NCBI RefSeq assembly: GCF_964194025.1
Contig: NC_134481.1
Coordinates: forward strand, 23,064,001-23,128,000
Direction of reading: 5' to 3'
DNA: 64,000 nucleotides
From: Convolutriloba macropyga
Lineage: Eukaryota
This document shows, in pieces, positions 10,387 to 64,000 of this stretch. Both the position numbers and the translations under genes were made by a program. The stretch's first letter is position 1, and every line of letters starts with the position of its first letter. The notes under the pieces are model-generated. The model did not search any database. It saw only the letters and a list, made by a program, of their open reading frames with translations, and was not told the origin of the DNA.

Positions 10387-10805
10387 TGTGGTACGGTTGT
10401 ACCATAATTTAGTTCTCATTTAGTAAAATGTACTTAATTATTTTATACTTGTCCTTGTAAAACTAAAAGTCAATGTTCACATAATTATAAATTACCGCCG
10501 ACTAAAAAGTCATTATTTCATACTGTTCACACCTCCCACTTTTACTCAACTATTCATTCTTTTGAATCTTCTTATTGAATTCAGTCGTTCGCAATCTAAT
10601 CTCTTTTCCACTAGATAAAATCTTAGCGGATTTGAAGGAGAAATCCATCCTCATTTAATCTGTCTACATTCGCACCGCGATTGTAGTCAATTCTAAAAGT
10701 AACAATCCATTTGACGTTGGAAACTTGGATTCGCACCTCGAATCCATACATCTAAATCTACGTGGATTCACAACACGATTGTACCCTATAGCCAGGGTTA
10801 TCACA
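10387..10805 (+). repeat. 3' LTR of the gypsy element
   Basis: Direct repeat of 4047-4465, same length. Confidence 0.97.
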
Positions 10806-10947
10806 AAATGAAAGCTAATTCTACAGGGAATATGCAGCTATATTTTTTTTATCCTGGCAAAGAATTGATTTTGAGATTTCGAGATAATTTGAAGGAAAAA
10901 ATTGCTTGGCTATGGATCGAGATGTTTTCATTAAAGAGTTAATGTAT

Positions 10948-24600: not shown

Positions 24601-24793
24601 CTCATATCAGAAAAGTGCTATTAACAAGTCACCGTTCCACGTTATGATTCCAGTTATAACTTGCAAGGCACACTTAGAACCGGTCAAAGGTACACTTTTG
24701 GTCCGGAAGCCGGGAACTTACACTATATACTTTGACAACTCTTTGAGCAAATACACTTCCAAAAAGATTGTATACTTTGTGAGTATTAGCTAA
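15663..24793 (+). CDS. FYCO1: FYVE and coiled-coil domain autophagy adaptor FYCO1-like; exons 15663-17522, 23209-23631, 24005-24793 (~1023 aa)
   Basis: RUN domain (KTSTGKGRALLR..TSTWY..IDFSWP), long coiled coil, FYVE (WVNE..CALC..RKHHCRSCG..C..C..RVC..C), C-terminal GOLD (WEFSSEPKSV..PGTYTIYFDNSLSKYTSKK). Both introns are GT-AG and phase 0 matches phase 0. Confidence 0.9.
18399..18877 (+). mobile_element. HINE-like element, copy B (most complete), in FYCO1 intron 1
   Basis: 5' TTTTTAATTGCTCT; 3' TCGTTTGAGAGCAATT (18836-18851), then hairpin CCGAC-GTTA-GTCGG (18856-18869) and TTATGTTT. Confidence 0.75.
19518..19621. repeat. ~53-bp tandem duplication
   Basis: gcttgagaaataaattcatcgagaaagaaatt...gatattgataactcaatg occurs twice in succession. 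Confidence 0.85.
21040..22252 (+). mobile_element. 5'-truncated, frameshifted L2/CR1-type LINE (RT C-terminal half), in FYCO1 intron 1
   Basis: LDLSSAFDTV, GVPQGS, FYADDSQL, LQRFQNAAAR, HWLPVDFRISYK, RSFSYQGAKQWNELP; a short (CAT)n tail near 22242-22251. Confidence 0.9.
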
Positions 24794-28930: not shown

Positions 28931-29362
28931 TTTTTAAATAAAAAGTTTGTTGAGACAAACCGCTAAATCACTAGGATACATAAATTTTGAACATAAATAT
29001 TAACCCATGTAAGTTTCTATTTTTCATTGTTTTTATTGTATCTATTTTTTTGCGTTCCCAATTTTTGCACTGCCACAATGAGCTACAGAGCGATGATTTT
29101 TTGTTTTTCTCAACGATGATTAAACAAAAAGTGAAACAAAATCAGCTGGCCGTGATCTTGCCTAAAAAAACAAAAGCAGTTTCATTTAGCTAAATGAGAT
29201 GTTCGGTTTGTGGATATATTACAGTACATCTCTTTCAAGTGTGAGACCTCAATTGAAGGAAAATGATGTTTTTAGTTCGTTCCATATTTCTTGTTTTCTC
29301 CCTTTTGCTGTAACATGCTCTGACAGTTAGTTACTCAGAATTTCTTTTTCAGGGAAATAAAA

Positions 29363-32300: not shown

Positions 32301-35300
32301 TTGATGACAGGTCTAAACGGTGGCTTTTGAAGACTCAATTAGTTGATGTAATTGCAGCCCTCATTAGCTGTTGCGTTCTCTGACTGTTATACTACGTGTT
32401 TTCAAAAAGTTTCAGCGAGTTTTATTGCGATATTGTTTGTTTTTGTCTCATCATTTATTGTTATTATTGAGAAGACTCATAGGCATTTAATGACGAGTTG
32501 CCAATGAGAAATAGAGGAATATAGTTGGCAGTTTGGTTTTGTATTAGTTGTTTTTTGATGTTGATCCTGTCTTTGCAAAAAATAAGTTGCATTTTTATCT
32601 AGTCTTGCTTGTTTTTGTTGTCCTTGTGTTGTTTTATTGCTTCATCTCATTAATAACAGCTCTCATTTAGCTTTTAAAGCTGAAAAATGATTGGTAGGTC
32701 ATTATTTAAAACATTTCTTTGAATTTTACATTTCTTTTTGTCTGTTTTTTTTTAAGATCTGTTCACACGTTTTCATGACTTTCGAAGTCAAATTAGAGTA
32801 GTGCTTTTAGTCACGCCACGAAACAGGAAGTGAAGCAAAAATTTTCCCATGTAATTTTAACGTAGAGCGAGAAAACGATGTTTGAACGAAAATTCGCTTT
32901 CTCGCTAGTGGTTTTTTGTTCACATGCGGCAGTTTCATTTTGATTTTTACTGTGTTTTCGATTTTTTGGATCGTTTTTTTCTAAGTTGTTTTCCCAATCC
33001 ATCCATAGTTCATTCTAGGGCTAGTGTTTTTGTTTGAATCAAATTTCTATTTCTCGCTAGTGGCTTAATTGTTCAGATGCGGCATTTTTATATTGATATT
33101 CGGTTTTTTAAAATTTTCTTTGATCTGATTTATTTTTGGGAAATGGTTTTCCCAGTTCAATCACAATCCGTTTTAGGTCTAGTTTTTGTTTAGTCGATGA
33201 AATTTTTGTAATAGTAAATCTTGACTTGTCCTGCTATTTTTTTAAAATTCGCTTTACCTTTACGTTTTTCGGTTTTACATAAGTCACGATTTTCACGTTT
33301 TACTTCGTACTTATTTCATTCACTGTTTCAACTGAATGGATTTTAATTTCTTTCACGCATTCAATTACGTAATGTGGTGAATACTGTCGAAGTAAAAATA
33401 TCAAAATCAAAAGACGGGATAAACCGATAAAGCCCCGTCAAAAAGTCATAGAGAATTAGGTTATCAAAGATCATTATAGTGTTTGCTAGCTGACATTGGT
33501 ATTAAGCTTATTAGATTTCAGTTTAGAAGCTGAATTAAGTAAAGTTATAGAAGAATCCAACTGAAACTGCACGCCAAATTTGAAAATTTTTTGACACTGA
33601 AGAAAAAGAAAGAAATTCGGTCAATTTATCTCCTTTTTTTCTGTTCAAAGCCCGATGTGCATCAAGCGCGTCAACGGCGGCTGTTTTCCGGAGATAGTTT
33701 TTTTTTCAAGTGCGTCAATTTGACTTCTGTTTTCAGAGTTTCCTCTCCTTCAGTGATTTTAAGACGGTACATTTGTGTTCTAATTGTGCTTTTTTGCCGT
33801 TGCCTGAATTCATTATGGGGCAGCTAATACTTTTTAATAGCCGCACAGCGATAGCTGAGGCTATTATTGGCCTTCTCTTGGTTTTTTTTATTTCGTCGTC
33901 ATGATTTTTGTTACGACCATATGACGTCACAGCCATTTTTTGTTCATTCGTTCATGCAATTTCAATTGAATTGCATGTGTGACGTCATTTTTCGCTCTTA
34001 GTGGAGCGAGTTTTTTTGTTCATGAGCGTAATTAAATTTTTGGTCACAATTGACTTACCTCACTCTCAAAAGTGACTTCCTCACTTTGAAATTGACTTTT
34101 ATCTACTTTAATTCAAAGAGATAAGGTCAAATGGGTGTGTATCACTCTAAATGAAGGTAATTTGAGATCAGCTAATAGAGGCAGCAATAACTTATACAGA
34201 TTTTTAATCAAAATATAACAGATCAGCCTTCAATGAAAAGATAAATTTTTTTGGTCTGTCTTTTTTACTGTTTTTTTTAGACTGCCGATCTACGAATCTA
34301 TTGCGGCTATTTTCTGGCAATCTGCCAGCTATGTTTTTGAATTTGCCACTATTTGTTGTCATAAAATATTAGTGAATTTAAGATTTTGCCCCCTTTTTTA
34401 AAAATTATCTGTTGTCTTATCACTTTGTATCAGCAATGACATGACTGATTGGTTGCTAATGAGTCACAAAAGAACCTAATTAATGGCTTGAGTTAACAGC
34501 TAGTGGTTTTCATAATTTCGACACTACTTTTTCTCAAAAATTTTGAGTGAATTCTTTAGTTCTGCAAGTATTTATTGTACTTTTTGATGTCTTATCATTC
34601 AATCTCATTGGGAAAGTTCTCTGATGCTGCTCATAGTAGCTATGTTCATCGATTTATTGTTTTTGTTCAAAGCTAGTGCTTGCTATGACTTTGACATTAA
34701 TTGTTTTCAATAATAATTACAATTTTTTTTTAGTTTTGCGAGCTTTTCTTTTCACCTTTGTCGTCTTAACTCTTGTTCTCGTTGTTGAGAGGTCTCATTA
34801 GTTGCTAAAAAGGCTTTAATTAAAGCCAATCACTTCAATTCATAGCAATGCTTTTTGTGACTCATACGCTTGTTCGTTTTTTTTAAAGTCTTAGTGATTT
34901 TTTTTAGTTTTCTTAGTTTTTGTTGTAATTATTGATGTGTTATCACTTAATCTTATTGATGACAGGTCTAAACGGTGGCTTTTGAAGACTCAATTAGTTG
35001 ATGTAATTGCAGCCCTCATTAGCTGTTGCGTTCTCTGACTGTTATACTACGTGTTTTCAAAAAGTTTTGTTTCAGCGAGTTTTATTGCGATATTGTTTGT
35101 TTTTGTCTCATCATTTATTGTTATTATTGAGAAGACTCATAGGCATTTAATGACGAGTTGCCAATGAGAAATAGAGGAATATAGTTGGCAGTTTGGTTTT
35201 GTATTAGTTGTTTTTTGATGTTGATCCTGTCTTTGCAAAAAATAAGTTGCATTTTTATCTAGTCTTGCTTGTTTTTGTTGTCCTTGTGTTGTTTTATTGC

Positions 35301-38300
35301 TTCATCTCATTAATAACAGCTCTCATTTAGGTTTTAAAGCGGAAAAAATGGTTGGTAGGTCATCATTTAAAACATTTCTTTGAATTTTACATTTCTTTTT
35401 GTCTGTTTTTTTTTTAAGATCTGTTCACACGTTTTCATGACTTTCGAAGTCAAATTAGAGTAGTGCTTTTAGTCACGCCACGAAACAGGAAGTGAAGCAA
35501 AAATTTTCCCATGTAATTTTAACGTAGAGCGAGAAAACGATGTCTGAACGAAAATTCGCTTTCTCGCTAGTGGTTTTTTGTTCACATGCGGCAGTTTCAT
35601 TTTGATTTTTACTGTGTTTTCGATTTTTTGGATCGTATTTTTCTAAGTTGTTTTCCCAATCCATCCATAGTTCATTCTAGGGCTAGTGTTTTTGTTTGAA
35701 TCAAATTTCTATTTCTCGCTAGTGGCTTATTTGTTCAGATGCGGCATTTTTATATTGATATTCGGTTTTTTAAAATTTTCTTTGATCTGATTTATTTTTG
35801 GGAAATGGTTTTCCCAGTTCAATCACAATCCGTTTTAGGTCTAGTTTTTGTTTAGTCGATGAAATTTTTGTAATAGTAAATCTTGACTTGTCCTGCTATT
35901 TTTTAAAAATTCGCTTTACCTTTACGTTTTTCGGTTTTACATAAGTCACGATTTTCACGTTTTACTTCGTACTTATTTCATTCACTGTTTCAACTGAATG
36001 GATTTTAATTTCTTTCACGCATTCAATTACGCAATGTGGTGAATACTGTCGAAGTAAAAATATCAAAATCAAGAGACGGGATAAACCGATAAAGCCCCGT
36101 CAAAATGTCATAGAGAATTAGGTTATCAAAGATCATTAAAGTGTTTGCTAGCTGACATTGGTATTAAGCTTATTAGATTTCAGTTTAGAAGCTGAATTAA
36201 GCAAAGTTATAGAAGAATCCAACTGAAACTGCACGCCAAATTTGAAAATTTTTTGACACTGAAGAAAAAGAAAGAAATTCGGTCAATTTATCTCCTTTTT
36301 TTCTGTTCAAAGCCCGATGTGCATCAAGCGCGTCAACGGCGGCTGTTTTCCGGCACTCCGACGGCTATGTTTCATTTTGATAGGTGGTTTGCAACGAAGC
36401 AACTTCTTGCTTGTCAATTCATTATGGAGTGAATCAGACAAAGATAAAGCATTTAGTTTAAAGTTTTATGTCTATTTTTCTGTTTTCGTGAGACCATTGT
36501 TTGATTTAAAAAAATTTGAAAGCGCTACTTTTCTTGAAATTTTTACTGTTTTGTGTTTAATATCTTTGACGCTCCTGGTGTTTCTTCGCCTTTCCTCCTT
36601 TCTTCTGCTGGTCAAAGTATTATATAAATTAATTCAGGAATCACTCGACTTTTACCTTTTGATTTGCTCTCAGATATGTACGCTATTATTTGATTCTTCG
36701 AAGGTTTTAATTACGTTCTTGAAAACAATTTCTTATTTTTCCGACCCACCCGCGTGGGGGAGAAACTATATACTCAAATGGGTTTTTTGTTCAGTGAATT
36801 TTGTCCGATGAATATACCGTAGAGGGTTGTGAGCGGTACCATTTGAAAGCCCGTCCAACTGAAATTATATTAGATTTTTTGGAATTTCATTTTCGACGGA
36901 ATGATCAAGGTTTGTATTTTGTGATCATTTGACTGATTTCCGTTGTTTTTGTTCGCATCTTCCGCTTTTTTACCCAATTTTTTCAAGTTTTGCTGAAATA
37001 TTTGGAACATTTCAAAATTCAGCCTTTTTCTACAAAAATGGCAAGAAATTAGCTTCTTTAGTCCACTTTAAATTTGCGGGATTAACACACATAGAAGTGC
37101 TGACAGTTTTTTTGACTGCAAATGACAGTTCGTAATGGACGTACAGCAATGTCAAGGCTACTTTTGGTCCCATTATTCTTTCGTACTGTCCAAAAACATT
37201 TCGGATTGTTATCAGTTGATGTCTTTTTTAATATTTTCACATTTTTCTTTGCTATTTTTATGTTAATTACAGAACAGAACAATTCAAATCAAGGCTTGCA
37301 AATGGCAGTTCCAATTGTCTTCATAAGGAGTTTCACGCAAACATCTAGTTTTTTAGTCGAAAGCTTTCGACCTTAAAAAAGTACCCTTTGTCAAAATAAA
37401 CAAATAGATGATTGAGCTTGCCTATTTTTTTGTGGTCAAATGGTAGCTTTAGGTCAGCAAAAACAGGTAGAATCGTCTTGTTAATGGGCTAAAGTATAAT
37501 ATGAAGTGCGGTTTTTCGTTTTAAGTTATTTTTTTACGGCTTTGATGCTACTAGTTTTTCCAAAAAAATTTTTGATTGTTGAACAAATTCCTCTGTAAAG
37601 TTTTTTCTTGTTTTGTCTTATTATTGACAGGTCCGATATCATAATTTTGGTGTTCCAAAAAAGCAAATATCAATTCAGAATATTTTTTTCACTGAGTGGA
37701 TTATGATTTTAACGGTTTCGACACAGTCTTCTACAGAATTCATTGGAATTTTTCAGTTTTTTCTTGTCTTATGTTTTTCCTCCTTTTTCCTCCTTTTTGT
37801 AGTTCTAATCTGGATAATTGCAGTTTTTGGTGGTTGACTACTGATGAATGAAGGAACTGAGTTTCTGATTTCATTTCATAGCTTTAATTTTTCTTGACCT
37901 GAAGAACAAATGTTTTTTAAAATGACGTATATTTGAACTTTGCTGTTTTTTCTACTCTTTGCCTTGTCTGATTAATTACTAGTCGCATATCACTTTATTG
38001 GTGTTGAGGGAAAGCACAATATCCAATGTTTTTAGTGCATTGCTTATTGTTTTAACGGATTCAACACCGGTTGTTCACAAAAATTTAATTTAATTTTTGA
38101 TGTCGCTCTGTTTGTGGACGTATGACTTGTTCTGTATAATGACAGATGTCAATAGCTTTCTCTGGAGAGATAATTTAAACTATTTAATGATTTCAGTTGA
38201 TGGCTTATGTTTTTATGACTTGAAAATTCTTTTTTGTCTGCTTGTTACATACTCATTAGTCAGCGGTCGCATATCAAATTATTGAAATGAATGTTGAAAA

Positions 38301-44654: not shown

Positions 44655-47600
44655 ATGACTGATAGCGTTGAATCAAAGTCACGTGTTCTAAACGCACTTT
44701 GCACTGACTTAGTGAAAAACAAATTAAAAGTACCCGATATCAAATTGTATGACGAATTATGTGCTGCTATTTCGGCAAAAATGGAAAGCGCCATCAATAA
44801 GAATATTTCAACGGTTGATGTTAAAACTGTTTTGAATACGTATCGAAGGAAATTAGCAAACAGAGGATTTGTCGGTTATGCGCAGGGAAATTTTGGTAAC
44901 TTCAGACCTCAAGTGCTTCCGTTGTTGAACTTTCAAGTGAAAACAGAAAGTCTATGTTGTATTGAATCGTTATTTGACAAATCGACGAATAGTATGAACC
45001 TCATGTTGTATGTATGCATACCAGAGCAATTCTTCTACAAATCAGATATTATCAATTATAGATTGATACAAAAATTGAACTTTGCATTGCTTGTTGTCAT
45101 TGATGTTTTGAAGGGTTTAGACTTTATGTCACCCGTTGACAATTGGAATTTATTCAGCTTTGATCATTCGCCAATTCATGCGACATTATTTAGTCATTGT
45201 TATGTCAATGTCAATGTAAAATCAAAACACATCACTAATAATGAGACGCCAATAACCATGAAAGTAACATGTGTTCCGGAGAACGTTGACTTTTTCGAAA
45301 TTGATCGGTTGCGTTTTGACAATAATTGCGTCAGAATTCAATATTTGAGGAGCAAAGAGGAAGGTGAAAAAAGCGAAAAGGAAGCTGGTTTTGAAAGTAA
45401 AGAGGCACATTTGCCTAGTGTAGCTTACAATCAAATGATGATAAACTGTCTTTCTAGACATAATATTAACAAGCAACTGCTACAAAAGTTTCATAATTTG
45501 CCACTGATTTACAAAGAATGTTTAGCCCTAGTGTGTTATGCTGTGGGAGTTAAAAATTTGGGCCAGATTGATAATGAATACATTTTGAGTTGTTTTTTCA
45601 AGTTCACAGCTTCTGGGGCGCTTACAGAAAAGGGGCTGAATTATGAAGGTCATGTTTTCGAAGCGTTCACCGATTTCTGTAAGCTTTTCTACAAACTTTT
45701 AAATGAAAACGATTCAATATATAGAACAAGAGACATGTGTATTCAAAGTCATGTTTGCGAAAACTTGGATATTTTTCACAACCTTTCGCTTGTGAACTTC
45801 GACCTTGTGAAGCTCAAATTTGGGAATCTTGTGAAATCTTTCGGAAGTGTGCCCGAGCGCGCGTTGTATACAGAGTTGTTTGAGAACAAGTTGTCAATGT
45901 TTTCGGAATATGATCTGCTTTGTTCTTTTAACATAAATGCTTGGTACATCAATTCTGTCCAACCGGAAGATCTATTGGAATTTAATTGCAGGGCTGTCGA
46001 TTTGGTGGTTTCAAAGTTAATGCCAGAGTTATCTGCATCGCTCGGCAAAAGAGCTGTTCGCATTGATCTCCTAAACATAACAGCTGAAGAAGTTGACAAA
46101 GATGCTGATGAAAATGATGCGCGCGTTTATTTTGGAGTAAAATTGAACTTTTCAATGCAGGCCGAAGCTGTGATAAAGGGTCCACTACCGGAGAATGCAC
46201 AAGGTAACCAAAGTCTGACTCATACGTGAACAGTGTTAACTTATCCCTGCACGAAATTTCCATGTGAAAAAGTTGTACAGTTTTGATCTATTTGCTAATT
46301 GTTTTTCATCTTGTGAACAATGCATGTATTGGTTTTATGCACTACTAGATAGAGTTCACTGGGTACCTGTGTAATTGGTGGTAGAAACTATCTGATCCTC
46401 CACCTCCCACCTCCAAAACCGTGGGCGTACAATTTTCAACCACCCCCTCCCACTTAACGTACATGGCCATTTTTAGATGGTAATTTGGTCACGTATATTG
46501 AAACTGGGGGGGTCATGACCTGCACAGGGATCGAAGCATAATAGATCCGATAATCTTATTGGTTAACAAAGTCAACCACGGCAAAATAAATCACATTATC
46601 CCAATTGAATGACTCGTTATTGATTTAGAAGCCGAGAAATTTCGTCAATTATGGGGTGACGATTTGTGCAAGTTGAGACGATTCAAAGACGGCACCATCT
46701 GCTACGCTGTTGCCTTTCCCGACTTCATCCAGAGCAAACTTTCTCTACGCGATGTCTCCAAGACTATTCTTAAACACATTACTCTTCGGCATTTGGGCGA
46801 AGACTATGTGGACTCCTTTCAAGTTGTTTCTAATATTTTAGAGAGAGGGTTAACCTCTAAAGTTATTGGAGTGGGACATTTCACCGGAACGGGGGAAGAA
46901 GAAATTCAATCCACAAGAAACAAAGTTGAGAGGTTTGAATCTTTGATGTTTGATATTTCGAAACAGCTACCCCTACGAATCCAATCTGTAACTTGTCTCA
47001 ACGACGAAGTAAATCGAAACTCCTCAATTATTCCTGCAAGTTGTGAAACAAGAAGAGACAAATGTGTGTATGAAGTTGTTCATAAAAAGGTGCGAGTACC
47101 TTCTCAGTTTGAGCATCTGTTTGCATCTGGGAATAACAGCAGAAGGTTGATAGAGTTACAACTCGTTTTGCAAACTCATCAAAGTTGGCCCTCTAAAAAT
47201 CACGAAGCTGTCAAAAGACTGAAAGCAGCCTTCTACTCAAAGATGGGACAGTTGCTAACGAATAATGAGGTAACCTGTTTTGTTTCAAAAGAAATGCAGA
47301 TGTTTGGGATTGGATCTGTTTGAGGTCAGCAAAGATAGTCCTAGGACTTTTTTGAAATACCTTTGAAATAAAATTGTTTTTGCGCCCCAGCAGTTGGAGA
47401 TTTCCGTTTTTAAAATTTTTTGTGGTTTTTGAAAGTTTTTACAGAATTTTTGGAAATCAAAGTTGGCACTCATGAATTCGGAAAATTTCTGAAAAATCAT
47501 GTTTTGAAAGTTTCAAAAAAGAGTGGATCTAACGTATCCTTGGAAAGGTAAATTTGCAAAAATTTCGTTTTTTAGCAGAAGGGTGTGGTGACCTGGTAAT

Positions 47601-50600
47601 GTTTTTCCTCTACAAAACACGTTTCAAAGTATCTTGAGAAAAAATGGTCTTATTCAATTGGGTCTTGACATACTTTAAACAAGACGGCTCGCGCGAGTCT
47701 GTGCGTAGCACAAAATGTTCCCACATACGTCTCAAGGTTGCAAAAGCAACTTTTAAATTCTGCCAGGAAAACTGTTGGGAGTATCCGAAAGCAACTTATA
47801 TGCATTAGAGAAAATTACTTGTACTCTTTGAACCAAAAATTATGCCGTCTTTCAAAAGAACAAACTCTAGAATTATAAATGTAATACAATCTGAAAGACG
47901 CAGAAAAATCACACAGACACACACAAACAAAGGATACATTTCACAAATAGATACCAACACACAAGTGCAAAACCCAACAGCAAAAAGAAGCATTTTCAAT
48001 TTTGTTTTTGTCAATTAGTCACTACTCGAGTTTCGTCAATGTTGATTTAGGTATTCTTTGTTGTTCTTCTAAGAAACTAGGTGTGCACTTTTTGACGCAA
48101 TTTTATCGGCGACTAATTTTGACAATAAACGTTGAAACATAACATTTAAAAGTTTTTGGAATTTTTTTTACAAATTTTGATAATTCATGAGCACAACGGG
48201 ACAATGAATTTTTCAAAATCTCGCATAACTGTTCTCAGCGAGATTTAAAAACTGGGTTTTGTTGTTCCGCACTTCTGAAGCCGCAATTTGATGCAAATTT
48301 TAAGTAGTTTTTCTAATTTATCTTTGACAGTTTTTACACTCTTCCTCTATTTGTGTCTGTCCAACATTTGAATGCATTTTCTCTCTCACACTAACTATCC
48401 CTCTCTTATGCACACATAAAAGAACGCACAACCGTAAATACACCCACACAAGCGCGAGCACACAAATGCAAAACCCATCACCAAAAAAACCTGTCAAATT
48501 TTCTTTTTGGCAACTGATAATTACTCAAAACTCTTCACCGTTTAAATATGCCTGGACTGTTTTTTTCTCTGAAGCTAGGTTTTGACTTCTTAAAGAAGAG
48601 TACCGGTAATTATAATTTTGACAGTAAATCTGAAATTAACTTTTTGAAAGTTCTCATTTTTTTTGTCATTTTTGATGTTTCATGAGCATAAGGGAACAAT
48701 TAATTTTTCAAAACCTCGCAGATTTGATATTGGCAAAATTTAAACGCATCAGGCATAACCTTGTTTATAATTAAATCCGCAAATTTTTTTTTTCGGCATC
48801 TGATCATTACTCAAGTTTTCCCGCCTATCATTTAGGTATTGATTGTTCTTTCAGGAAAGTTTGATGTGCAAAATCTGATTTGCATTGTACAAAGTCTCTA
48901 TTTGTGTCTAACAATTGAAGGAAATAGTTTCTCACAATAACTCTTTCTCTCTCTCTAAATATATACGACAGACATTGAAAACACGCACACCCCATATATA
49001 CACCACCACCACCACAGGCGCGAACGCTCACACAAACAAATGCAGGCCTCGCCACCCGAAAAATTTCAAATCTTCTTGGCATCCGATATTTACGCAATAT
49101 TTGTCACTCCTTCATTTGTGTCTTGATTGTTGTTTTTTTTCTGATGTGGAATTCATGGCCTATTTGTTTTGATAATTATTAAATTGACAACAGAATCGGA
49201 ATTGAACTTTTTGAATTATTTTAAAATTTCTTGTCATTGTTGATGTTTCACGGGCATAATCCCCATTCGTATATATTAAAAACCTTACGCAGACGTGTTA
49301 AGAGTTAGATATAATAAGCAGTATTAGTTCTAAATATCTGTAAAAGCCCTTTGTTTAGCAAAGTTTTCCAACTTAATTAATTTTCTAACTTTTTATTACT
49401 TCTGACGGTTCTTGCACTCTGCCTCTAGTTGTTTTTTACATGAAAAGGAACGTTGAAAGCTCTTCGTAAAGCCTCCTGTTTTGTATTTTTTGAGAATTAT
49501 TCGTTATCAGTAGATGTTACTTTTTGGACCGTTTCTTGTTTTAGGATTATTTGTTTTTTATGGAAATAGGAAAATTTAATTGTTATGGGAACTGAAAAAG
49601 AGAAGACAATATCTTTTTATGCTTTCAAAAGAAATTTTTGTTTTTTATATGAGGAGTTTCGCAATCAATGAAGGATTTAGTTTTTCAATATAACGAAGCG
49701 CTCAAAGATCAGTTCGCAAAGCAATTTCAAATTGAGATGTGAAAAATCTCTTTCAAAAAAAGTTGTGATCATGTATTAAATTTTTCAGCCTGACTATCCA
49801 ATAACTCTCAAACTTTGAATTTCATCTGTATTTGATTATACCAGGGAAGGTTAGGTTGAACTATCTGTTCTGACATTATAAAGAACACAATTCGACAATG
49901 ATTTAGGTTTATTTCATGTTCGTCTCATGATAGTGGTTTTCTTTACGTTTCAAAGGTTTTGAAAACACTCAAATGGTTATGGTTAGTTCTGACTAAATGA
50001 GAACAATTTTTTGCAAAAACAACTCTAAAATTTTAAAAAGAATACATTTTTTTCTTGCTTTTAGTTTTATACTTTCAAAGGGGATTTTTTGCCATTTTGA
50101 GAGCTCTTAAATTGCCTGAAGTCTTCTCTTCAGTTTTCCAAAGATCTTTTTGATACAAAGAAAAAGGCTTCATGCAATAGTCTTTAACCGGCAGAAAACA
50201 GTTTTTGTTCATATAGTTTAATTTGTTAATTTTTAGCCTTGAAAGCGTAAAGCATTTTAAAACTTCTATTAAACCTTACTAAATTTACTACAATATTTTT
50301 TGTTTGTTTATCTTGAATTATGCGATCCGCAGAGACACGTTAGATGTATCGAGATTTCTCCACAATTCGCATGTTCACAATAAAGAGTTTCGATTGAACA
50401 CAAAAGGGCCAGGAAGGAATTGAAAGTAGGAGAGGGCGGTATAATAATTTTCTATTTACTGCGTTGAAAAGACCGTTTCGCTTTGAAATTGAAAATTGCA
50501 TTTTAAGCCAATATGGCACAGACAGCGCATCAACTGTCAGGGTGAAATTCTGTCCGCAATAAATCAGGACAGGCATGGGCGTTTTCACCAAGTCATAAAA

Positions 50601-50799
50601 GCTAATAGTTAACACAGAATGCAACACACCAAGAGTCAAATGAGTTGAACCTGACCATGTTTTTTTTTCAAATTAAAAACCCCCCTCCCCAATACTTGGT
50701 GAATGTTGACTGGTCCGGGGTTCTCCCAGATCTTCGTCTTCGTAAAGAGTTTGGTATATTTACAGATTTATCAATAAATATTAAAATGAAACAAACTAA

Positions 50800-50857
<58 letters not shown>

Positions 50858-53180
50858 GGAGAAATTCATGAAGATTTGTGATATGTTGTTTGTAAAAATT
50901 TTGAGTTCATCGGCAAATAAAATGTACGATTCTTGAGTTGTCGAGTTTAAGGGCTAAGGGTGCTTTTTAATTATAATAGCATCAATCTCGTAGCTGAACA
51001 AAGCTTTGCTATAGTTTTTACGATTTCTTTAGAAACTAAGGGAAAACAACATTATTGTTAAATACTGCTCATATTTCAGTCATCACTCGTTGCGTTCCCA
51101 ACATTCGACGGTCTGTATGTCCAATCGGAGGGCCAAGTTTACAGATTGACAATTTTCCACCCGCCTGAAGTGAAAATGCTAATGCGACAAATGCGTACAC
51201 CAACCGGAGCCATTCACTGGGCTCACACGGAGGATTCGAAGAAACTTGAAATGGATCAAATTTTGAAACCAAAATTGAGGGTCTTATTTGCAGGGTTCGA
51301 ACAGTTCTTCCCTCAGTTTGGACCCATCTGTAGATTAGTGAAAGCCTGGGTCAATGCTCACTTGTTGCTGTTCGAAATTGGTGATCTTGTAGTTGAATTA
51401 CTTGTGGCTGCTATGTTGGAAAACGGTCACTTGAATGGCAAGTATTTGTTGCCTATTTCAATCATTTCATCACGTTTAATAGGTGTATAGAGAATAACTC
51501 AGAAATTACTTTGGAGCCCTTAGTATAGAGTAACTTAGGCTCCTTGACAGAAATAAGTGCTTTTTAACATTTAAGCTGTTTCATGTGCGGTAAAATAAAT
51601 GATCAAATGAATAACGATAAATTTATTTAGAATGAATTGTACACACAATAATGTAGATTGAGTCATAAAATCGGAAACTAACGAATTCGAAATTGTCTAA
51701 TGATGCATTAAATAAACATAACACAAAATGAAGGCACGTTGTCTTGAGTCAAAGTTTGAGTTCATAAGTGTGATGTGTAAGTTCGAGATTTCTTGTTTCA
51801 GGTGCTGTTCCTGGAAGCATGCAAGCGGGTCTCTTTAAATTTTGGTGTTTCATTTCAACCTTCAATTTTGCAGTCAGTCTTATAAGATTGGGTCTGCAAG
51901 ATCCAAACACTTTAACCACTCGTGAAGCATCAGGTATGTTCATGTTCGTTTGTGCCAACAAAACGAAGAAATTTTTTCTCACCCCCCCCCCCTCCGGACG
52001 GGGTCTTCAAGTAATGAGATTCTGCATTTAGTGATTTACAGACCGCAAGTAGGTATATATTGCTGTAAGATAAAGATTTTTTTCAGAAGCTAACCCTTTA
52101 AATGAGCAGATTCTATCCCGAATGTATATCTTTGAAGCAAAGATTATCTCGAATCTCCTAATCTAATGTTTTTGCTGCTTGAATTTTTTCCTAAATTTAA
52201 ATCTGCAAACGCTTTGACCTAACTCATATTAACTTTATAGTCAAGTAGCGATAGTGAGGGATACTAGTGATAGTGTTGTTTTTTTATGACTCGAAGAGGA
52301 TATGCTTTTATGTAAACTATTTCGAAACAAAAATTGGATCTATACTGTTTTGCCCCCTCCCAGCTTAGTGGGCTTATATTTTTTACGCTTATATTTTTAC
52401 GCACGTGCTATTTTTTACATAGTTACGTGCTATATAACAACATATAATTTGTAACTGGGGGGATTTTTGGGATCTAACAGAATAGATGCCAAAAATTTTT
52501 TTTCAATTCTTTCAGAGCAAGAGAAGTGCGCAGAGTTGAAATTTGATTTGGACAGAGTCGAGTTTCCGCCTCTGACAATATTTACTCCAGTTACACCCAT
52601 GACATCAGATTTCACATCTCATGTTTCACAACCTGTTCTCAACAGACTGGCTAAACTGTCTGCCAAAGCTCTCAAAGTAGTTCACACTGACATGATGCTA
52701 TCATTGAATGGGCGAAAAGAATTTCCCAATGTGGCTACGATTTTCGAACCAAATTTTGCGAGTTTTGATTTAATCGTACAGGTTGTGGCACCGGAAAAAG
52801 ATGAGAAAAATGGCCCGAAGGCTAAAAAACAAAAGAAGAACGAAACTGATGTCAGTGAAAGCGATGAAAGTGAAAGTGATGATGACGATGCCAATGATCA
52901 AATGCACAAAAAATCAAGAAAAATGATTCCGGTTTTCAACGTAAATTTGGTCGAAATGGTAGCTAAGCGCCTGAAAGCATGCGTTGGCCATTTAGCTCAT
53001 GTATTTTGCGATATTCACTCTGAAAGTGCTGATAAAGTTGCTCTCAAGTTCAAAAAGAGTCAGTTTCCTGAAGTTAACGACTGGTTCAGTGCTAACTTGG
53101 CACTGATTGTTGGCGAAATCGAAACTGTAGTTGGAATCAATTTGATTGTTGATATGCAGTTGCTTTATAAAGATGTGTAA
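44655..53180 (+). CDS. NOL6: Nucleolar protein 6 (Nrap/UTP22); exons 44655-46203, 46629-47269, 51080-51437, 51802-51933, 52516-53180 (~1114 aa)
   Basis: KGP....EAEKFRQLWG..KLRRFKDGTICYAV, WP...EAVKRLKAAFY, FGPICRLVKAWVNAHLL, VVELLVAA, PGSMQAGLFKF and PPLTIFTP match Nrap motifs. All intron phases match (1, 0, 1, 1). Confidence 0.92.
47850..49450. repeat. Diverged tandem array of ~500-560-bp units in NOL6 intron 2
   Basis: The motif ttgaca..aa..tgaa...ttgat.tttca.g.gca.aa...aaa.ct.gca recurs near 48120, 48620 and 49185. Confidence 0.6.
50802..50854. repeat. (TA)n microsatellite
   Basis: About 26 uninterrupted TA units. Confidence 0.97.
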
Positions 53181-55494: not shown

Positions 55495-57529
55495 CAAATT
55501 TACAGACACTCGCCTCAATTCACAGAGATTGATGCAATTGAAGATCTGCGCTGCTGACGGCTGTGTTAATTTGTCCTTCAGACAAAGGAATTTTTTTCCT
55601 TAAAGATCTCCGTAGACACTGAAGTCAATCGCCATCTGAGAAATAATTGCAATTTGTTTAATCTATATAAGCTGATATCCTTTTTTATCTTGTTCCATAT
55701 TCCTATGATATATTTTCTAGATTTATTTGATGCTACATCTATTTACAATTGTTCCGCAAAAAAAAACTTATACATGAGAGAATTTTTTGAAGCCAGAAAA
55801 TCTTATTTGCTGTATAAACAATTGTTGGTCGAATTGACCTGAAATGTTGCGTTTCGCTTTTACGTGAATGTTTTATGGTATTTCAGATTTTGTGCAATAT
55901 CAGATTTGAATAATTTTAATCATTGATTGATTGATTGATTGATTACATCTGCTACACTATGACTGCAGTTGGTCTTACGAGTGATGCTGCTTCTCGGACC
56001 GCTTCGACAGCAGGTATGGGTGAGTTAGGAACCTAAGCGTTAGCTAGATTTTGCCAATATATCCCCTCTCAATTGCTAAGCCTTTTTTTGCAATTATTCA
56101 GATCTTGGTTTGTTTGTTCCAGTTGCAAAAGTTTTATACCAAAGCCAACAAACCCCTCGCGCGAGAGCAGTTTGTCAAACGGTAGTCGGTTTCATGTTCT
56201 GTTTTGGGCTACTTCGCGTTGTTTCGTGAATTGACCAGAGGGTTAACTAGTTCTGCCAGGATCCACTAAGCAGTTTGAATACCAAGATTGCTCAAGTTTG
56301 CTTCAAATATAAAAAGAAAACAGGGGTCACTTTTCTTGGGGGTATATTCTAAGTTTCCAAGTATCTCATGGATAACAATTGCTATTGGCTTCTGGAGAAT
56401 AATTAAGCTCCTCTAAAATAAATAACATTTGAAAAATGTTTGAAGTTTACCCATTGATGATTTCGGCTCTATGAAAATGAATATACGTCAAATCTTCTAG
56501 ACCGCTGGGTATCACAATTTTATTCATTCGCCAAATAATGAATTTAGTCATTTGTATTCAGTGGAGATTTTGAGAAGTCAGTAATGCTAAAACTATATGA
56601 GAATTGTGTGGTAAAAAGTGTGTGATAACTAATTTCTTGCTAGTTTAGAAAACGTGACTTGTGCGGAGCTTGAGATATAACTGGTGAAATTAGCGGCTCT
56701 TGTTAGTGAAATAACTGAATGGTTCGCATTATATTTAATAACAATTTTAAAACAAAGTTTCAAGTTTGTAGCTTATAATCAATGAAATTGGAAACATCAA
56801 TTTTTTATCCCAGATATTTTTTATCCAAGTTTATTGTTTCCCAGTTGTCTTTTGTTGCTTTTTAAAATTGTTGAAACGACTACAGGAGAGTTTGATTGAC
56901 CTATCATGATTCTATTCATTATAGTTTGTTGTAACAATTAAGACAGGTATATTGATAGCAGAATGCTTTTGGGTGGATCAAGCTAACTTTTTAAAACATG
57001 TGCTAGTCCCAGAGGAGAGCTGTTACTGACCATGTCTCATGAGTTCTCAGATGTAATCCGGAAATCTTGGGTCGGTTTACTATTTACTGTCTACTTAAAT
57101 CTAGTTTTAAGGCAAACGCCATTGAGTTGAGGCTACAATTTGCTATTGATATACACTGAATGGCGAATGTAAGCCCCCCCCCCCCCCCCCAATTTTATGA
57201 AAAAAAAAATGCAATTTGTGAGGCAATTTTACTCTTAAAATCAAATTTCGAACATAATTTTTACACCATTGATCCCCTACACTAGTCTTGTCGGCTACCT
57301 ATGAAATTCAGTTAAAACCCAACGTTCACTTACCAGAAATCCCAATGTAATGTTTACAAATCTATCCTTCATTGTTAAAAGAAAGTTGTCACAAGATGTG
57401 ATGTTGTCACAAGATGTGATATCTTTTCAGGTTTGTTCAAATGCGGCTAAGTTTGCACTTGTGTTGAACATTAGAGAAAAGATGATGCATAAATTGTGAA
57501 CTTGGATGAAGTTTATCAACTTTAGATTG

Positions 57530-58388
57530 TGTCACGCCCCTATTTCGTCCCTCATAGTTACGTGATTATTTTCCTTTAAATATCCATAAATAAGTGCTTT
57601 AATCTAGTTCAATTTCATTTAGTTTCAAGGTCATATATAGCCAGTATTTACCATCTAGGCCTGTAACCCCTAATTTGTTTATGTTTATGAAAAGCAACCG
57701 CAGAGTGACAGTTTTACTAGCAAACATATCAAGTGCCTAAATGCCTCAATATTTACTTTTTTGAGTTTCTTGAAGATAAATTCGCATAATTAGTAAATAA
57801 CTTCATGAGAGATTATGTACTTGGTGAAGTAATTATTCTGATAAAGTAGGTGCTAATACGGAACTTGTTTATGTACTTAACAAACATCAAGAGACGTACA
57901 AAAGCCGGAAATTGCCCAACTTGTAGATCAGTAAATATTTGCGAAGGACCAATACAACTCAAGGCACAGTCCTGCGGAACTTACGATCAGCAGAACACCG
58001 CAGAAACAGCCTGACTATCAGTTGCTAATAAAACTCAGCAAAAACTCGAACTTCTTATTCTATCATTGAAAACTTTGGCTTTATTTTTCTAATTAAATAA
58101 TTAATGATTGAACTGGGAATTCTTCCTAAAACTAATAAGTTAAAACAGGCTACATTAGAGTTATAGTATGGCTAAATAAAGCTCTAAAAGCCAAGGCAGC
58201 TAGTGGATATATCGCGCATCCGAACCGCTCAATAAAAGGCTATTACTAGCTAAGTTTATTCAAAATATATCCGCTAAAAATCGCACTGTGAAACATCAAA
58301 ATAAGTCCTTGAAAAATGACAATAATTATTCCAAGTTATCTCTCAAATTTACCTCGCAGATTCATACTCTAAAAATTAGTGCGTAACA
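57530..58388 (+). repeat. 5' LTR (859 bp)
   Basis: Direct repeat of 62258-63124, with roughly a dozen substitutions plus two indels by eye. Confidence 0.96.
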
Positions 58389-58400
58389 TGGTGACAGTAG
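58389..58400 (+). other. Primer-binding site (tRNA identity uncertain, possibly Leu)
   Basis: TGGTGACAGTAG directly after the LTR-terminal CA; resembles the tRNA-Leu complement TGGTGGCAGCGG with mismatches. Confidence 0.6.
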
Positions 58401-58778
58401 TTATTAACTGTTTTCCAGTTTAAACGAACCGAAACTCTGATTAATTCCTTGATAAATTCGACATTTTCTTTCTTTTCTTCCGCCATTTTCTTCTTTTGCT
58501 TTTTCTTCATTACCTTAAGAGCCTCCAATCATCCAGACCAGCATCCAGCACTTCCTTTCCGAGCAAGACGATAATGCAGAAAGCAGTAACAAAGGAAAGA
58601 ATGAGTGGAAACTGTGTTTGTGTCTCTGTGGACTAAATGCAATAACAATCCAAAAGTGTTTGAGTGGTCAATAACTGGAACAAACTCAACCACAACGGAC
58701 AAAAACAACACAGGGTATTTGCAAACGAGGATATTGTGAGTAAATAATTTTGTAAAATTTAATTTTGGTGCTTTATTT

Positions 58779-59111
58779 ATGTCATTTTATAAAGAACAAA
58801 TTCTCCCTGCTATTAATAATGGTCGCGCTTCCCCCAATTTTGTTGAATATATTGAAGGAAATAACATCAACTACACCTATGACAGCAATAAAACACAAGC
58901 TCAGATAGTAAGCGCTTTTTCCTCTTCAGCTTATAAATCCATCGTTATTTATGTGCTAGATAAAGATGATAAACGTGTAGCAATTCATTGGACAGCAAAA
59001 AGTTTAAATCAGAAATCTCGCAAATTTGGCCTTATCCGTTACAAACTTCAATCAGACAGAGATATTAACCTTGACAACATCATTACTGATTATCAGATAA
59101 CATCAGAATAA
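58779..59111 (+). CDS. Intact orphan 110-aa ORF in the LTR-element leader (ORF0), unknown function
   Basis: ATG to TAA, uninterrupted, with globular-looking composition; located between the PBS and gag. No family recognised. Confidence 0.5.
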   Translation: MSFYKEQILPAINNGRASPNFVEYIEGNNINYTYDSNKTQAQIVSAFSSSAYKSIVIYVLDKDDKRVAIHWTAKSLNQKSRKFGLIRYKLQSDRDINLDNIITDYQITSE

Positions 59112-59630
59112 GCTAAATTACTGAAACCATCACTTAAATATTAACTAAAAGAGGGCAAAACAAAAATTTAAACAAAATAATAAAACAAATTTATTTTATT
59201 TCCCCACCCAGCTCCGGAGGTTAATGAATCAAACAGTGACTTCGGTCAATTATGCTGTTGCCTATCTGAGTGCAGCTTCCACAAGGCCTGTGCGGTCGTG
59301 GTCCCCACGAATTTTCCTAGACTAAGGGGCACTCTTTAGAGGTGAGACTTCGGCGGCCCATACGGCTTCAACGATATAAGTCTGACGATTCGACCAGAGC
59401 TTTAGGAATGGGCTTATAAGCTTTATAAGCAGCCCTTCTTTAATATTTGCTGAACGAATGGTTTCAGTAGCTTCTTTTCTGATATTCTTGTGCTATTCAT
59501 TTAACTGTTTTCTTCTCTTAAAACCCCTTAATCTCTCCATTAAGTTAAGTTTAGTGTGCTACTTAATACTTTAGAACGAAAATAAGACTGATTGAACATT
59601 AAGTATATAATCTAATCGGGAAAAAGCAAA

Positions 59631-60466
59631 ATGGCACACTTACAGATCAATATCACGCCTTTTTCTGGATCAGAAACGGACAATTTCAACGAGTTTGAAC
59701 AACTAATAACAGGTGCAATCGGAGTTGCGGCAATCGCGGCCGCGCAACAAGCGAATTTTCTGCAATTACATTTAAAAGGAGATGCTTTACGATACTTTCT
59801 AACGCTACCAGAGGCTACCAGACTAATTTTTGAACATAGTATAACAGCTCTAAGAAATAGATTCACACAAGACGACTTGAGAGAGATCAGAGTAATAAAA
59901 TTGGAGAACCAAAAGTTTAATCCAAAAACAGACACAGTGAAAAATTTCTTAGTAAAGTTGAGAACAGAAGCAAATAAAGCATATCCAGCACCTGAAATAG
60001 TAGTAGCGCCAGCAGGAGCAGGTGATCCTGAAGCCCGTAGATTCGAAAGAGAGACAGCAGCAAGAGAATCTGCCCTTCAGATGTCAGAAAATCGAAAATG
60101 AGCAAATAAAGCGCTTCTTTATTAAGTCTATGCTGAATTGGCTTAAGCCTAAGCTGTTAGAAAGGCCAGATACTGATACAATTGATCAATTATGCACCTT
60201 AGCTAGCCAACAAATTGCAATTAGGGAGATGTGTAACAGAGAAGAGTACTTTGACGATGGATTTAATGAAATAACCGAATCGAACACAGATAAAATGCTA
60301 AAAGCAATAACTGTTATTTCAAATAATCAAAAAGAACTTGAGCAGCAACTTAACAGAAAGTAGCATCTAAAATTGAGCCATCAGAACAAAGCCCAGTACA
60401 CATTTTTACACCACATTGCCCACAACAAGTCTACAAACAAAGTTATAGACAAAATTTTCGCCCTCA
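59631..60466 (+). pseudogene. gag: Retrotransposon gag (capsid), frameshifted near 60095, stop at 60361, truncated by the deletion
   Basis: ITPFSGSETDNFNEF, LHLKGDALRYF, ALRNRF, TVKNFLVKLRTEANKAYP and QIKRFFIKSM are typical Ty3/gypsy capsid motifs. Confidence 0.85.
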
Positions 60467-61723
60467 GTTGAAGACGGACTTTTACTGACACTAGCCATTC
60501 CCCTAGCCTCTAGCCAGACAGTGTTTGAAGTTTATCGTGCCAATGTTATCCCTATGCCCCAGAAGGACTCTGTAGACGCCTTACAATGGGTGATAGAGGG
60601 AGAGTACTTAGCAATCTCCGAAGGACAGATGGAAACTACAGTACTGACAAAAGCCCAGTATGACAACTGTCTTGGATCGCCACGATACCGAATCTGTCAT
60701 GAGACAATGGAAACCCACCTTGGATTCTCCTCGTGCCTAGCAACCCTCAAGTTTCATCATGCCATTACAGCATTGAAAGTATGTGACACGGAGAAGGTTG
60801 TGTTACCCAACCCAGAACGAGCACAGAACCTTTGATACGGAATTTGGCTCTTAACATCAGCTTCAAGTGATTTTACCCTTAGTGAGATTGGTACGGATGA
60901 GAATGGCCAAGAGACCAACATTTCTCACAAAGGTTGTAACATCTGGTTAATCACATTAAAATGTGGACATACAATGTTCAGTGACCACATTAAAATTCGA
61001 GCTGATTTACAAAGTTGTCAGTATCTTCCCGCGAAGCGAATCAATGTAAAATTGCCAGATCCACTAGAACATTTTATTGACTCAGTTCCAAACATAAACG
61101 AACTTCCGAAGCACGAATCAAGCACTGAAGCAAATCTAGACTTATTGAAGAAAGTTAAAACAGAATTCATTTACTCCAATCGAAAGTTATCAACAGAATC
61201 AGTTGATGATATAGCGAAGCCTATTACCACTGAAATGAAGTCATTTAAACCAGCACTAATTGACAAACTTGAATCTTACGTTCCTATCAAACTTTCTCCT
61301 TCGCTAACAGTTATTGTCTTTATCGGAAATCTAGCTTTACATATTCTCTTCATGTACTTATACCATAAAGTAGCCTTTGTACGACGAATGGTACCAAATT
61401 TCATGAAGCTTAACGGAACCAATGTACCGCTAAACCCAGTAGTTTCCGTACCCAAACATCTGAAATCAGACGTAGTCACAACTCTAGCCAAACAACTAAA
61501 GCAACCGCCAACAGTCATCTCTCCAGAAGAACTTGGAACCCTCAAACGACAACGACGAAATTCTGCAACATGCCTGCAACTTCTACCATGTCACTCAACA
61601 CCATGGACCGATTTAACACAGACGATGAACTGGACAACCAAGCTCAATCCCGAGAGGAAAGTATACTTTGAGTTCTTGAAAATCTTATATAGTTTGACAA
61701 GTATTATTCTTTTAATCGTTTAA
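60467..61723 (+). pseudogene. env: C-terminal two-thirds of an envelope-like glycoprotein (errantivirus Env / baculovirus F-like), with an in-frame TGA at 60833
   Basis: One frame reads LLLTLAIPL..FEVYRANVIPMP..EYLAISE..YDNCLG..YRICHE..SSCLA..VCD, then Cys-rich, a helical stem, a transmembrane segment (LTVIVFIGNLALHILFMYLY) and a cytoplasmic tail. It lies immediately 5' of the 3' LTR. Confidence 0.75.
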
Positions 61724-62257
61724 GTTCCTTTCACTTATTAAGTTCTCCTCCTAAGTGCTTTATATAACCAAACTAGTGCTTCAATCCCAGAAATTAACCA
61801 GCGCTTTAAACCATTTATTTAGCCAGTTCAAATGTGTTACCCTATTCAAAGTTTAGAGCTATTATTCAGTGAAATAACCATGATTAATTTCAGTGCTAAT
61901 CTTAACGTGTCCTCTAAACCCTAACTCTATCTTATGTTCTCACTCTTTATTCAACTTTTGCGCATTCTCAACTCTCAAATGTTCCTTCAAAGCCTTTAAT
62001 CTTGTCTTAACCTTCTCCATTTCAATCTTATCTCAATTTGTCTTAACTTAAACTTTCTTCCTCTTAACTTCCTTAATTGTCTTTAACTTAAATGCTTTCG
62101 TTCAAAAACTCTTTTCTCAGAAAACATAAATTGGGTGGCTCCAATAAAAACATATGTTTACTCTTACATTCGTACAGATTATATGTTTTATAGAAAAATT
62201 GTAAAACCCCAGTTTCTTCTTAAAATTTTCATGGAAAATTTTCATAAAGTCCGGTAG

Positions 62258-63124
62258 TGTCACGCCCCTATTTCGTCCCTCATAGTTACGTGACTATTTT
62301 CCTTAAATATCCATAAATAAGTGCTTTAATCTAGTTCATATTCATTTAGTTTCTAGGCCATATATAGCCAGTATTTACCATCTAGGCCTGTAACCCCTAA
62401 TTTGTTTATGTTTATGAAAAGCAACCGCAGAGTGACAGTTTTACTAGCAAACATATCAAGTGCCTAAATGCCTCAATATTTACTTTTTTGAGTTTCTTGA
62501 AGATAAATTTGCATAATTAGTAAATAACTTCATGAGAGATTATGTACTTGGTGAAGTAATTATTCTGATAAAGTAGGTGCTAATACGGAACTTGTATATG
62601 TACTTAACAAACATCAAGAGACGTACAAAAGCCGGAAATTGCCCAACTTGTAGATCAGTAAATATTTTCGAAGGACCAATACAACTCAAGGCACAGTCCT
62701 GCGGAACTTACGATCAGCAGAACACCGGAGAAACAGCCTGACTATCAGTTGCTAATAAAACTCAGCAAAAACTCGAACTTCTTATTCTATCATTGAAAAC
62801 TTTGGCTTTATTTTTCTAATTAAATAATTAATGATTGAACTGGGAATTCTTCCTAAAACTAATAAGTTAAAACAGGCTACATTAGAGTTATAGTATGGCT
62901 AAATAAAGCTCTAAAACCCAAGGCAACTAGTGGATATATCGCGCATCCGAACCGCTCAATAAAAGGCTATTACTAGCTAAGTTTATTCAAAATATATCCG
63001 CTAAAAATCGCACTGTGAAACATCAAAATAAGTCCTTGAAAACTGACAATAATTATTCCAAGTTATCTCTCAAATTTACCTCAATAACATCTTTGATTCA
63101 TACTCTAAAAATTAGTGCGTAACA
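62258..63124 (+). repeat. 3' LTR (867 bp)
   Basis: Direct repeat of 57530-58388. Confidence 0.96.
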
Positions 63125-64000
63125 CATTGGAATTTCTTGAAATTGAACGTTTGGGATTTCTGGTGGTTTATATGAATTTCATTGGTAGACGAGAAGACGG
63201 TTTATGTCCCAGTTTGATTTTAAGTTGGGTTATAATTGCATTTTAACCCAACATAAAACTAGGGAGTGACAACTTAGTTTGGCCTTTTATTATATAAGGT
63301 CAAATGGAAAGGTCTTTATTAAAGAAATGATTAACAAAAGATAATTACATAGCTTGTATTTTTGCAAGCTTTATTCCGAATCTTTCAAATTTTGTTGCTC
63401 GGAGTAGTTTTTTCCACAGCTTTTTTTTCAGATTTTAGGAATTTTATGAATTCATTTTTTATTGTTTTTATCAATATTGTCAATTTCGATTCCCAGTAGA
63501 TAATTTGCCGCATGTTTATGATATTTTGGAACTCTGGGTGATGCTGTGCCAACTTGCACAAGCGACGTCAACTCTCCAAAAATTTATAAGATCAGAAATC
63601 ACCAACAAAAACCAATTAGATTTAATTAGGACGATGATTATTTAATGATAAACTGTTGTAATCGATTTCAGTTAAATCAATCAAATTATCTTTTCTAAAA
63701 GAGTTCCCGAGGCGGCAAATGTTAAAATAGCAAAATTTACCATTATTTTTAAAAATAAAATTTCATTTGATTTCAGCTACTGTACACAAACTTGTGAAAA
63801 CTTTTTCAAAAGCATTGTCAGCTGCACATGTTGAAGAAAACAGTTGCTATAGCGACTGTTGAAAAAGTCCACATTGACAGCCAAAACTAACATGAAAATT
63901 ATTAAAGTTCTGCGAAACTATTTTAAACCAGATTCGTACTGTTCAAAAATAGCACCTTACTTTGATAGAGTAATGGCCTAGACTTTGATGTCGTGCCAAT

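Follow-up and report, generated by a model that had tools for sequence, protein, structure and literature searches.

The 64-kb window analysed in this study is the whole stretch of contig NC_134481.1 of Convolutriloba macropyga (Xenacoelomorpha, Acoela) from 23,064,001 to 23,128,000, with positions counted from its first letter. At 57530-63124 it carries a long terminal repeat (LTR) element with an envelope-like 3' region. As the original prediction had stated, paired LTRs of about 860 bp and about 98% identity bound this element. The 5' LTR (57530-58388, + strand) is 859 bp long, begins with TG, ends with CA and contains AATAAA at 58027, 58175 and 58231; the 3' LTR (62258-63124, + strand) is 867 bp long with the same TG...CA ends. 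Their alignment has 845 identical and 13 mismatched columns (5 transitions, 8 transversions) with indels of 1 nt and 9 nt, giving a Kimura two-parameter divergence of 0.0153. The terminal inverted heptamer of the LTR is matched at 6 of 7 positions. The element is flanked on the left (57525-57529, +) and right (63125-63129, +) by 5-bp target-site duplications; a single base differs between the two, which would fit a duplication that has aged a little. A weak polypurine-tract-like stretch (62246-62257, +) precedes the 3' LTR.

The predicted primer-binding site (PBS) does sit directly after the 5' LTR (58389-58400, +) and is complementary, with mismatches, to the end of a leucine transfer RNA (tRNA). 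It matched both leucine 12-mers tested at 10 of 12 positions and a tryptophan 12-mer at 8 of 12. These three 12-mers were taken from the supplement of PMC13524379 (Chary and Hayashi, eLife 2026; cited throughout from the part available), and none of them is one of the host's own tRNAs; ARAGORN found no tRNA genes in the window. The errantivirus definition in that paper includes flanking LTRs and a PBS with at most two mismatches to a 12-nt tRNA end, both of which are present in the window copy. The identity (97-98.5%) and spacing (4.7 kb) of the LTR pair lie slightly below the 99% and 5 kb filters applied there.

Between the LTRs, gag lies on the 5' side and an env remnant on the 3' side. The gag sequence (59631-60467, +) covers residues 1-280 of a 419-residue relative, P0335, and is spread over three frames by frameshifts near 60094-60098 and 60354-60360; segment by segment, the identity is 74-94%. 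The env sequence (60464-61668, +) covers residues 363-762 of a 762-residue relative, P0297, and is 91% identical to it up to a frameshift near 61564. Because the gag and env alignments to P0335 and P0297 overlap by a few bases, 60464-60467 (+) was identified as a deletion junction, at which gag residue ~280 of 419 is joined to env residue ~363 of 762. The deletion takes out the 3' third of gag, any pol and env residues 1-362, and the signal peptide, furin site, fusion peptide and heptad region of env were lost with it. Neither an open reading frame (ORF) nor a Pfam match indicative of pol was found between gag and env. The retained env part consists of a Cys-rich ectodomain segment, one hydrophobic helix (P0001 residues 282-306, ~61292-61366) and a tail. 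It is broken by an in-frame TGA at 60833-60835 and by the frameshift near 61564-61570, because of which env homology stops at 61668; the last ~50 codons of the ORF at 60467-61723 match no relative. In total, the copy has one stop and three frameshifts beyond the deletion. The original prediction was thus right about a gag from 59631, about the TGA at 60833, and about the Cys-rich ectodomain, transmembrane (TM) helix and tail of the 3' ORF. It did not hold that gag is truncated at residue ~280 and divided among three frames, that the ORF is the C-terminal half of env and not a whole env, or that env homology ends before 61723. The deletion, the loss of the fusion peptide and a 110-residue leader ORF described below were absent from it.

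We compared the junction with the collected relatives. All 29 collected gag proteins that contain the motif just before the junction extend through the 3' half of gag. Of 44 env proteins that contain the motif just after it, 42 extend upstream through the N-terminal half of env; the other two are the window's own protein and one that starts at this motif. Therefore, the deletion is not common to the collected copies. A contig of run X5 aligns from 60465, and its preceding 415 letters are unaligned. By our own rough estimate, three frameshifts and one stop in ~2 kb are close to what the LTR divergence would lead one to expect under neutral decay; the age of the insertion is uncalibrated, since no acoel substitution rate was at hand. 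The intactness asked for in PMC13524379 has been lost from the window copy through the deletion, the stop and the frameshifts. As judged from its reading frames, this copy would make neither Pol nor a fusion-competent Env, and would be mobile only with proteins from other copies.

On either side of the element, the flanks (57171-57529 and 63125-63260) make up a small inverted-repeat element with 70% identity over ~75 bp and high depth in run X1. Its left arm (57285-57347) pairs with 63124-63198 at 70%. Since the flanks form this short inverted repeat, the LTR element was probably inserted into it and would be nested inside. A joint of 57519 to 63168 in run X1 might have represented an empty-site allele. 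This reading was rejected because the 37 letters in between differ from the expected flanks, so the joint more likely derives from a different copy of the flanking repeat. In X1, the contig over the 3' junction reaches 29 letters into the LTR, where the threshold for bridging was 31. No other part of the 64-kb window resembled the LTR element.

For the searches, the window env protein was read with X at the stop codon. Its homologues numbered 122 among 1337 candidates, and 493 representatives were found at E<=0.001. Full-length relatives have a hydrophobic N-terminus, which we read as a signal peptide, an R-x-K/R-R site, a GIGLFG fusion-peptide motif, conserved cysteines and one TM segment. 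The furin site RQKR lies at residue 138, a hydrophobic stretch at 142-164 and the TM segment at 634-663, and a heptad region is also present. The furin-site arginines, GIGLFG and the cysteines were kept across 16 env proteins at 39-94% identity, and a furin motif occurred at residues 100-200 in 32 collected proteins of at least 700 residues. The signal peptide, furin site, fusion peptide and TM segment by which an F-type Env is recognised are thus all found at the family level. Pfam Baculo_F (PF12259) was matched above its cut-off by 2 of 25 scanned relatives (27.0 and 29.6 against 24.1), both of them more distant than the longer family members (90-91% identical in env). At E<=0.05, it was matched by 8 of 55 relatives. 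The top ESM Atlas clusters for env were Baculo_F and Fusion_gly (0.93-0.95), which is weak evidence. Among the best PDB rows of the env family profile, all of them short of significance (E 0.045-0.057), were an F0, presumably of pneumovirus type, that covers the furin site and fusion peptide, and a 'fusion protein' that covers the part of env retained in the window. These results suggest that the env of the family is likely, though not proven, to be a class I F-type envelope. The F-type Env that had been predicted thus has moderate support in the family, through its layout, the Baculo_F matches and the Atlas clusters; the window protein has no Baculo_F match. The check proposed with it, a comparison with families and structures after repair of the TGA, likewise gave nothing for the window protein.

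The family to which this env belongs is large. Among 542 collected proteins, 83 were at least 80% identical to the window env, and gag fell into clusters of 122 members (including P0335) and 76 members. The 419-residue relatives supply the gag ORF that is part of the definition in PMC13524379. In run X1, the summed contig depth rose from 36-66 in the unique flanks to 4,300-137,000 within the element. Such values point to a large family, although neither they nor the cluster sizes, with 15 members listed per cluster, are copy numbers. No RNA data set was among the 7 sequencing runs listed as containing the sequence, which speaks neither for nor against expression; runs X6 and X7, with small word shares, were left out of any claim on host range. 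Furthermore, 37 X1 contigs exit the LTR edge at 57530 into dissimilar flanks. An uninterrupted 762-residue env was found in two of the members listed, and uninterrupted gag ORFs also exist. Intact relatives, which the original prediction had expected, were thus seen as single ORFs; no whole gag-pol-env copy, and no sign of expression or infectivity, was seen. The 64 long env proteins formed 36 groups at 75% identity; the env tree, made by a quick method with no named outgroup or host labels, serves to describe diversity only.

Sister families were also encountered. The P0062 cluster is a sister env family, 43% identical to the window env and of the full 724 residues in 9 of 15 listed members, which lie on short contigs. 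Among metagenome contigs, 1 of 67 stretches was confirmed, namely L001 (3.8 kb, env 53%). At 828-3400 it holds a broken sister env (53%) followed by an LTR start resembling that of the window element, and by eye a GGTAG/TGT junction resembling a polypurine-tract/3' LTR border also stands behind its env. No recognisable pol domain was found in its 3.8 kb. In viral contigs, none of the pattern matches to env or gag relatives was confirmed (0/15, 0/29 and 0/2).

In the window family and in three sister families, gag terminates in K-N-stop; three proteins continue beyond this end. P0337 and P0363, both from the gag cluster, do so, and P0363 resembles the sister-family read-through P0397, which reaches what we take to be a protease-like motif. 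Post-gag sequence in the relatives comprised the first ~80-100 residues only. As far as can be inferred from protein ends, the gag end and read-through would fit a -1 gag-pol frameshift.

From these features, a cycle can be proposed for an intact family element. The LTR would drive the genomic RNA, tRNA-Leu at the PBS would prime reverse transcription, and Gag would be produced either by itself or, after a -1 slip at the QQKN end, as Gag-Pol. The integrase would create the 5-bp target duplication. Env would enter the secretory path, be cut by furin at RQKR, trimerise and expose its fusion peptide, and particles would pass from cell to cell; as for gypsy in Drosophila, the route would probably lead from somatic cells to the germline. 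The window copy itself carries the LTRs, the PBS, the target duplication and the gag-then-env order of such an element, together with the deletion and four further breaks.

We conclude, with a probability of roughly 0.82, that the element belongs to a multi-copy acoel LTR family, likely of Ty3/gypsy type with a class I F-type env, and is a copy that inserted recently, carries an internal deletion and is decaying. It is errantivirus-like at the family level and a dead derivative at the copy level. By the operational definition in PMC13524379, the family is likely an 'ancient errantivirus'. The original prediction of a potentially infectious lineage fails for the window copy, which has no pol and no fusion half of env; for the family, infectivity can only be inferred.

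Several results weigh against this conclusion. The window env protein had no Baculo_F match in Pfam and no match in the PDB at E<=10. Baculo_F at E<=0.05 was missed by 47 of 55 relatives, and the closest 762-residue relative scored 14.6 bits, below the cut-off. The PDB rows of the env family profile were not significant, and two haemagglutinin HA2 chains scored equally well. The ESM Atlas scores for env are weak evidence because the recognition value of 1696 lies below 2300. No close family gag had a Pfam match above cut-off, and the gag profile gave nothing below E 1 against the PDB. No reverse transcriptase (RT), RNase H or integrase of the window family was recovered among the collected relatives. 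NOL6, a neighbouring host gene, is on two contigs, and the assembly may contain both haplotypes. The longer members differ by 5-12% in protein (env 94%, gag 88-95% identity), and the mark of recent activity in PMC13524379 is >98% identity; present activity of the family is thus not established.

Since no RT was recovered, membership in Ty3/gypsy was inferred from gag type, layout and PBS, and the family might instead belong to another Ortervirales lineage with an F-like env, such as BEL/Pao elements like roo or a group related to loki/Odin. We consider this unlikely. Two sister gags matched DUF1759 weakly (E 0.0014 and 0.0056), and P0179, a rearranged copy in which part of a sister env adjoins part of an integrase, had its best integrase match in foamy virus (E 0.0014), with Ty3 behind it at E 0.23. 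However, the gags of BEL/Pao elements have three CCHC-type knuckles, whereas the sister gags end in a single one (CX2CX4HX4C), and P0349 was the only one of 12 scanned gags to pass the zf-CCHC cut-off; no knuckle was evident in the window's own gag family. ESM Atlas matches of gag were to DUF7041, Retrotrans_gag and PNMA, weakly, at 0.88-0.91. F-like env is also found in roo (PMC13524379) and in lokiretroviruses (PMC9040795), but according to the available part of the latter paper, lokiretroviruses occur in vertebrates only, in a screen that included 2 xenacoelomorph genomes.

It is quite unlikely that the family is a pol-less, non-autonomous gag and env element mobilised by the Pol of another family, in the manner of rotifer TelKA2n, which keeps env without the gag C-terminus and most of pol (PMC5408684, in the part available). 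No Gag-Pol fusion was present among 23 gag relatives of up to 2000 residues, which counts in favour of such an element and against an autonomous family. Other deletion derivatives also occur: P0014 joins leader sequence (window ~58770, by eye) to the env fusion peptide, and P0089 joins a macrodomain to env. However, a frameshifted pol would be invisible as a fusion in ORF calls, P0337 and P0363 extend past gag into sequence like that of P0397, and the junction of the window copy is not shared by the collected copies.

That the 3' ORF is a captured host sequence, which the original prediction had named as its refuting case, or a membrane protein unrelated to viral fusogens is very improbable: the window protein matched neither a family nor a structure directly, and one RefSeq host gene model contains the env sequence, but the 83 proteins at least 80% identical to the window env refute capture, the env family is large (122 proteins, 493 representatives, 36 groups among 64 long proteins), it has the furin site, fusion peptide and TM segment and includes Baculo_F passes, and the RefSeq model looks chimeric. 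In this model (XP_075250769.1, P0463), a C. macropyga RING and multi-SH3 gene that we take to be SH3RF/POSH-like, the matching part is 92% identical to the window env over 367 residues, and most of env lies between two copies of one SH3 stretch. The model is probably a chimeric annotation of an insertion.

The neighbouring genes identify the host. A gene with RUN, coiled coil, FYVE and GOLD domains, presumably FYCO1-like, and the gene for nucleolar protein 6 (NOL6) lie at 15663-24790 and 44655-53177, and the LTR element lies ~4.3 kb beyond the end of NOL6. Their exons match C. macropyga XP_075261910.1 and XP_075262126.1 at 87-100%, with 4 of 8 segments at 100%. The suggestion that the lineage is outside the insects was therefore correct. 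A search by way of a NOL6 exon found no longer homologues among 4150 candidates.

Other features of the window were noted. A second, unrelated gag-pol element (RVT_1, RNase H, rve) with broken frames lies at 4375-9951; its gag belongs to a cluster of 55, and no env was seen in it. On both sides of it are long direct repeats whose order is permuted (297-4046 with 10944-14669, 95.8%; 4044-4465 with 10384-10805, 98.3%) and which by eye contain fragments like long interspersed nuclear elements. At 31028-36353 there is a 2.67-kb tandem duplication of 98.6% identity, possibly an assembly artefact. An ORF at 29324-29710 had no Pfam match at E<=0.1; by eye, we take it to resemble an L7Ae/RPP38-type protein.

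Two leads to accessory genes were found. The leader ORF of 110 residues (58779-59111, +) lies ahead of gag and belongs to a cluster of 54 members; 11 of the 15 listed have the same start and stop at 88-95% pairwise identity, in clusters which, being built from ORF calls, favour open frames. It had no Pfam match above cut-off and no PDB match below E 0.13. The second lead is P0089, which is not in the window. It has a macrodomain at residues 104-251 that matches human TARG1/OARD1 (C6orf130) at E 5e-15 and lies in frame ahead of env, with env residues 185-475 at 92% identity. The macrodomain retains TK and GxD, presumably the catalytic motifs of the TARG1 type. As it was seen in one protein only, its membership in the family is not established, and it may come from the pol end, from an accessory ORF or from an unrelated neighbour. 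No macrodomain motif was evident by eye in the 870 bases upstream of env in L001. Macrodomains of coronaviruses and alphaviruses blunt host defence based on poly(ADP-ribose) polymerases (PARP). By analogy, we tentatively propose that the full-length family might be a 'complex' invertebrate retrovirus-like element, in which gag, pol and F-type env would be joined by the 110-residue leader protein and by a TARG1-type macrodomain that erases ADP-ribose marks and so blunts PARP defence. Macro ORFs are mentioned for fish epsilon-like endogenous retroviruses in the available part of PMC4977317, and the terms macro, ADP-ribos and accessory are absent from the main text of PMC13524379 as available.

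A previous report described 1512 env-carrying Ty3/gypsy elements across most metazoan phyla (PMC13524379). Elements with F-type env were already known from cnidarians, ctenophores, tunicates and rotifers, and env elements also from annelids and molluscs, so the present finding is less surprising than the original prediction assumed. The window family shares with these 'ancient errantiviruses' the LTRs, a tRNA PBS, gag 5' and env 3', F-type env features, a non-insect host and many copies; it differs in that its host phylum is outside the survey and the window copy is deleted. With the insect errantiviruses gypsy, ZAM and Idefix and with baculovirus F, it shares the F-type env family, as the two relatives above the Baculo_F cut-off indicate, and a tRNA-Leu PBS is common in insect clades I4-I6 (PMC13524379). 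However, the sequence similarity is remote, the host here is not an insect, and according to the same source infectivity has been demonstrated for Drosophila elements only. The rotifer element TelKA is alike in having a paramyxovirus-like F env of ~600 residues with RXXR, fusion peptide, coiled coil, cysteines and TM segment (PMC5408684). TelKA2n is alike as a deletion derivative that lost the gag end and pol, but it keeps env whereas the window copy lost the N-terminal half; the likeness is one of described features.

Xenacoelomorpha is absent from the groups surveyed in PMC13524379 as available, and acoel and xenacoelomorph terms gave 0 matches in its 7 supplements, with acoel terms absent from its text as well. 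Gypsy elements are reported to make up 28.2% of another acoel genome, with no mention of env in the available part of PMC6451197. We found no report of env elements in acoels or of macrodomains in LTR elements in open-licence PMC and bioRxiv texts, which is not proof of absence. The published map of Ty3/gypsy elements that carry an envelope has a gap at Xenacoelomorpha. The window copy itself is a fossil, of value because it leads to the family and to two possible accessory genes. If the proposal of a 'complex' lineage is true, such a lineage would belong to a phylum that branches at the base of the Bilateria. It has been claimed that env is older than the bilaterian split and has been passed down along with its hosts; an F-type family in an acoel, with the many diverged env groups among its relatives, is relevant to that claim. 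To our knowledge, acoels have no epithelial gonad walls; they could therefore test whether retention of env is tied to a barrier between soma and germline.

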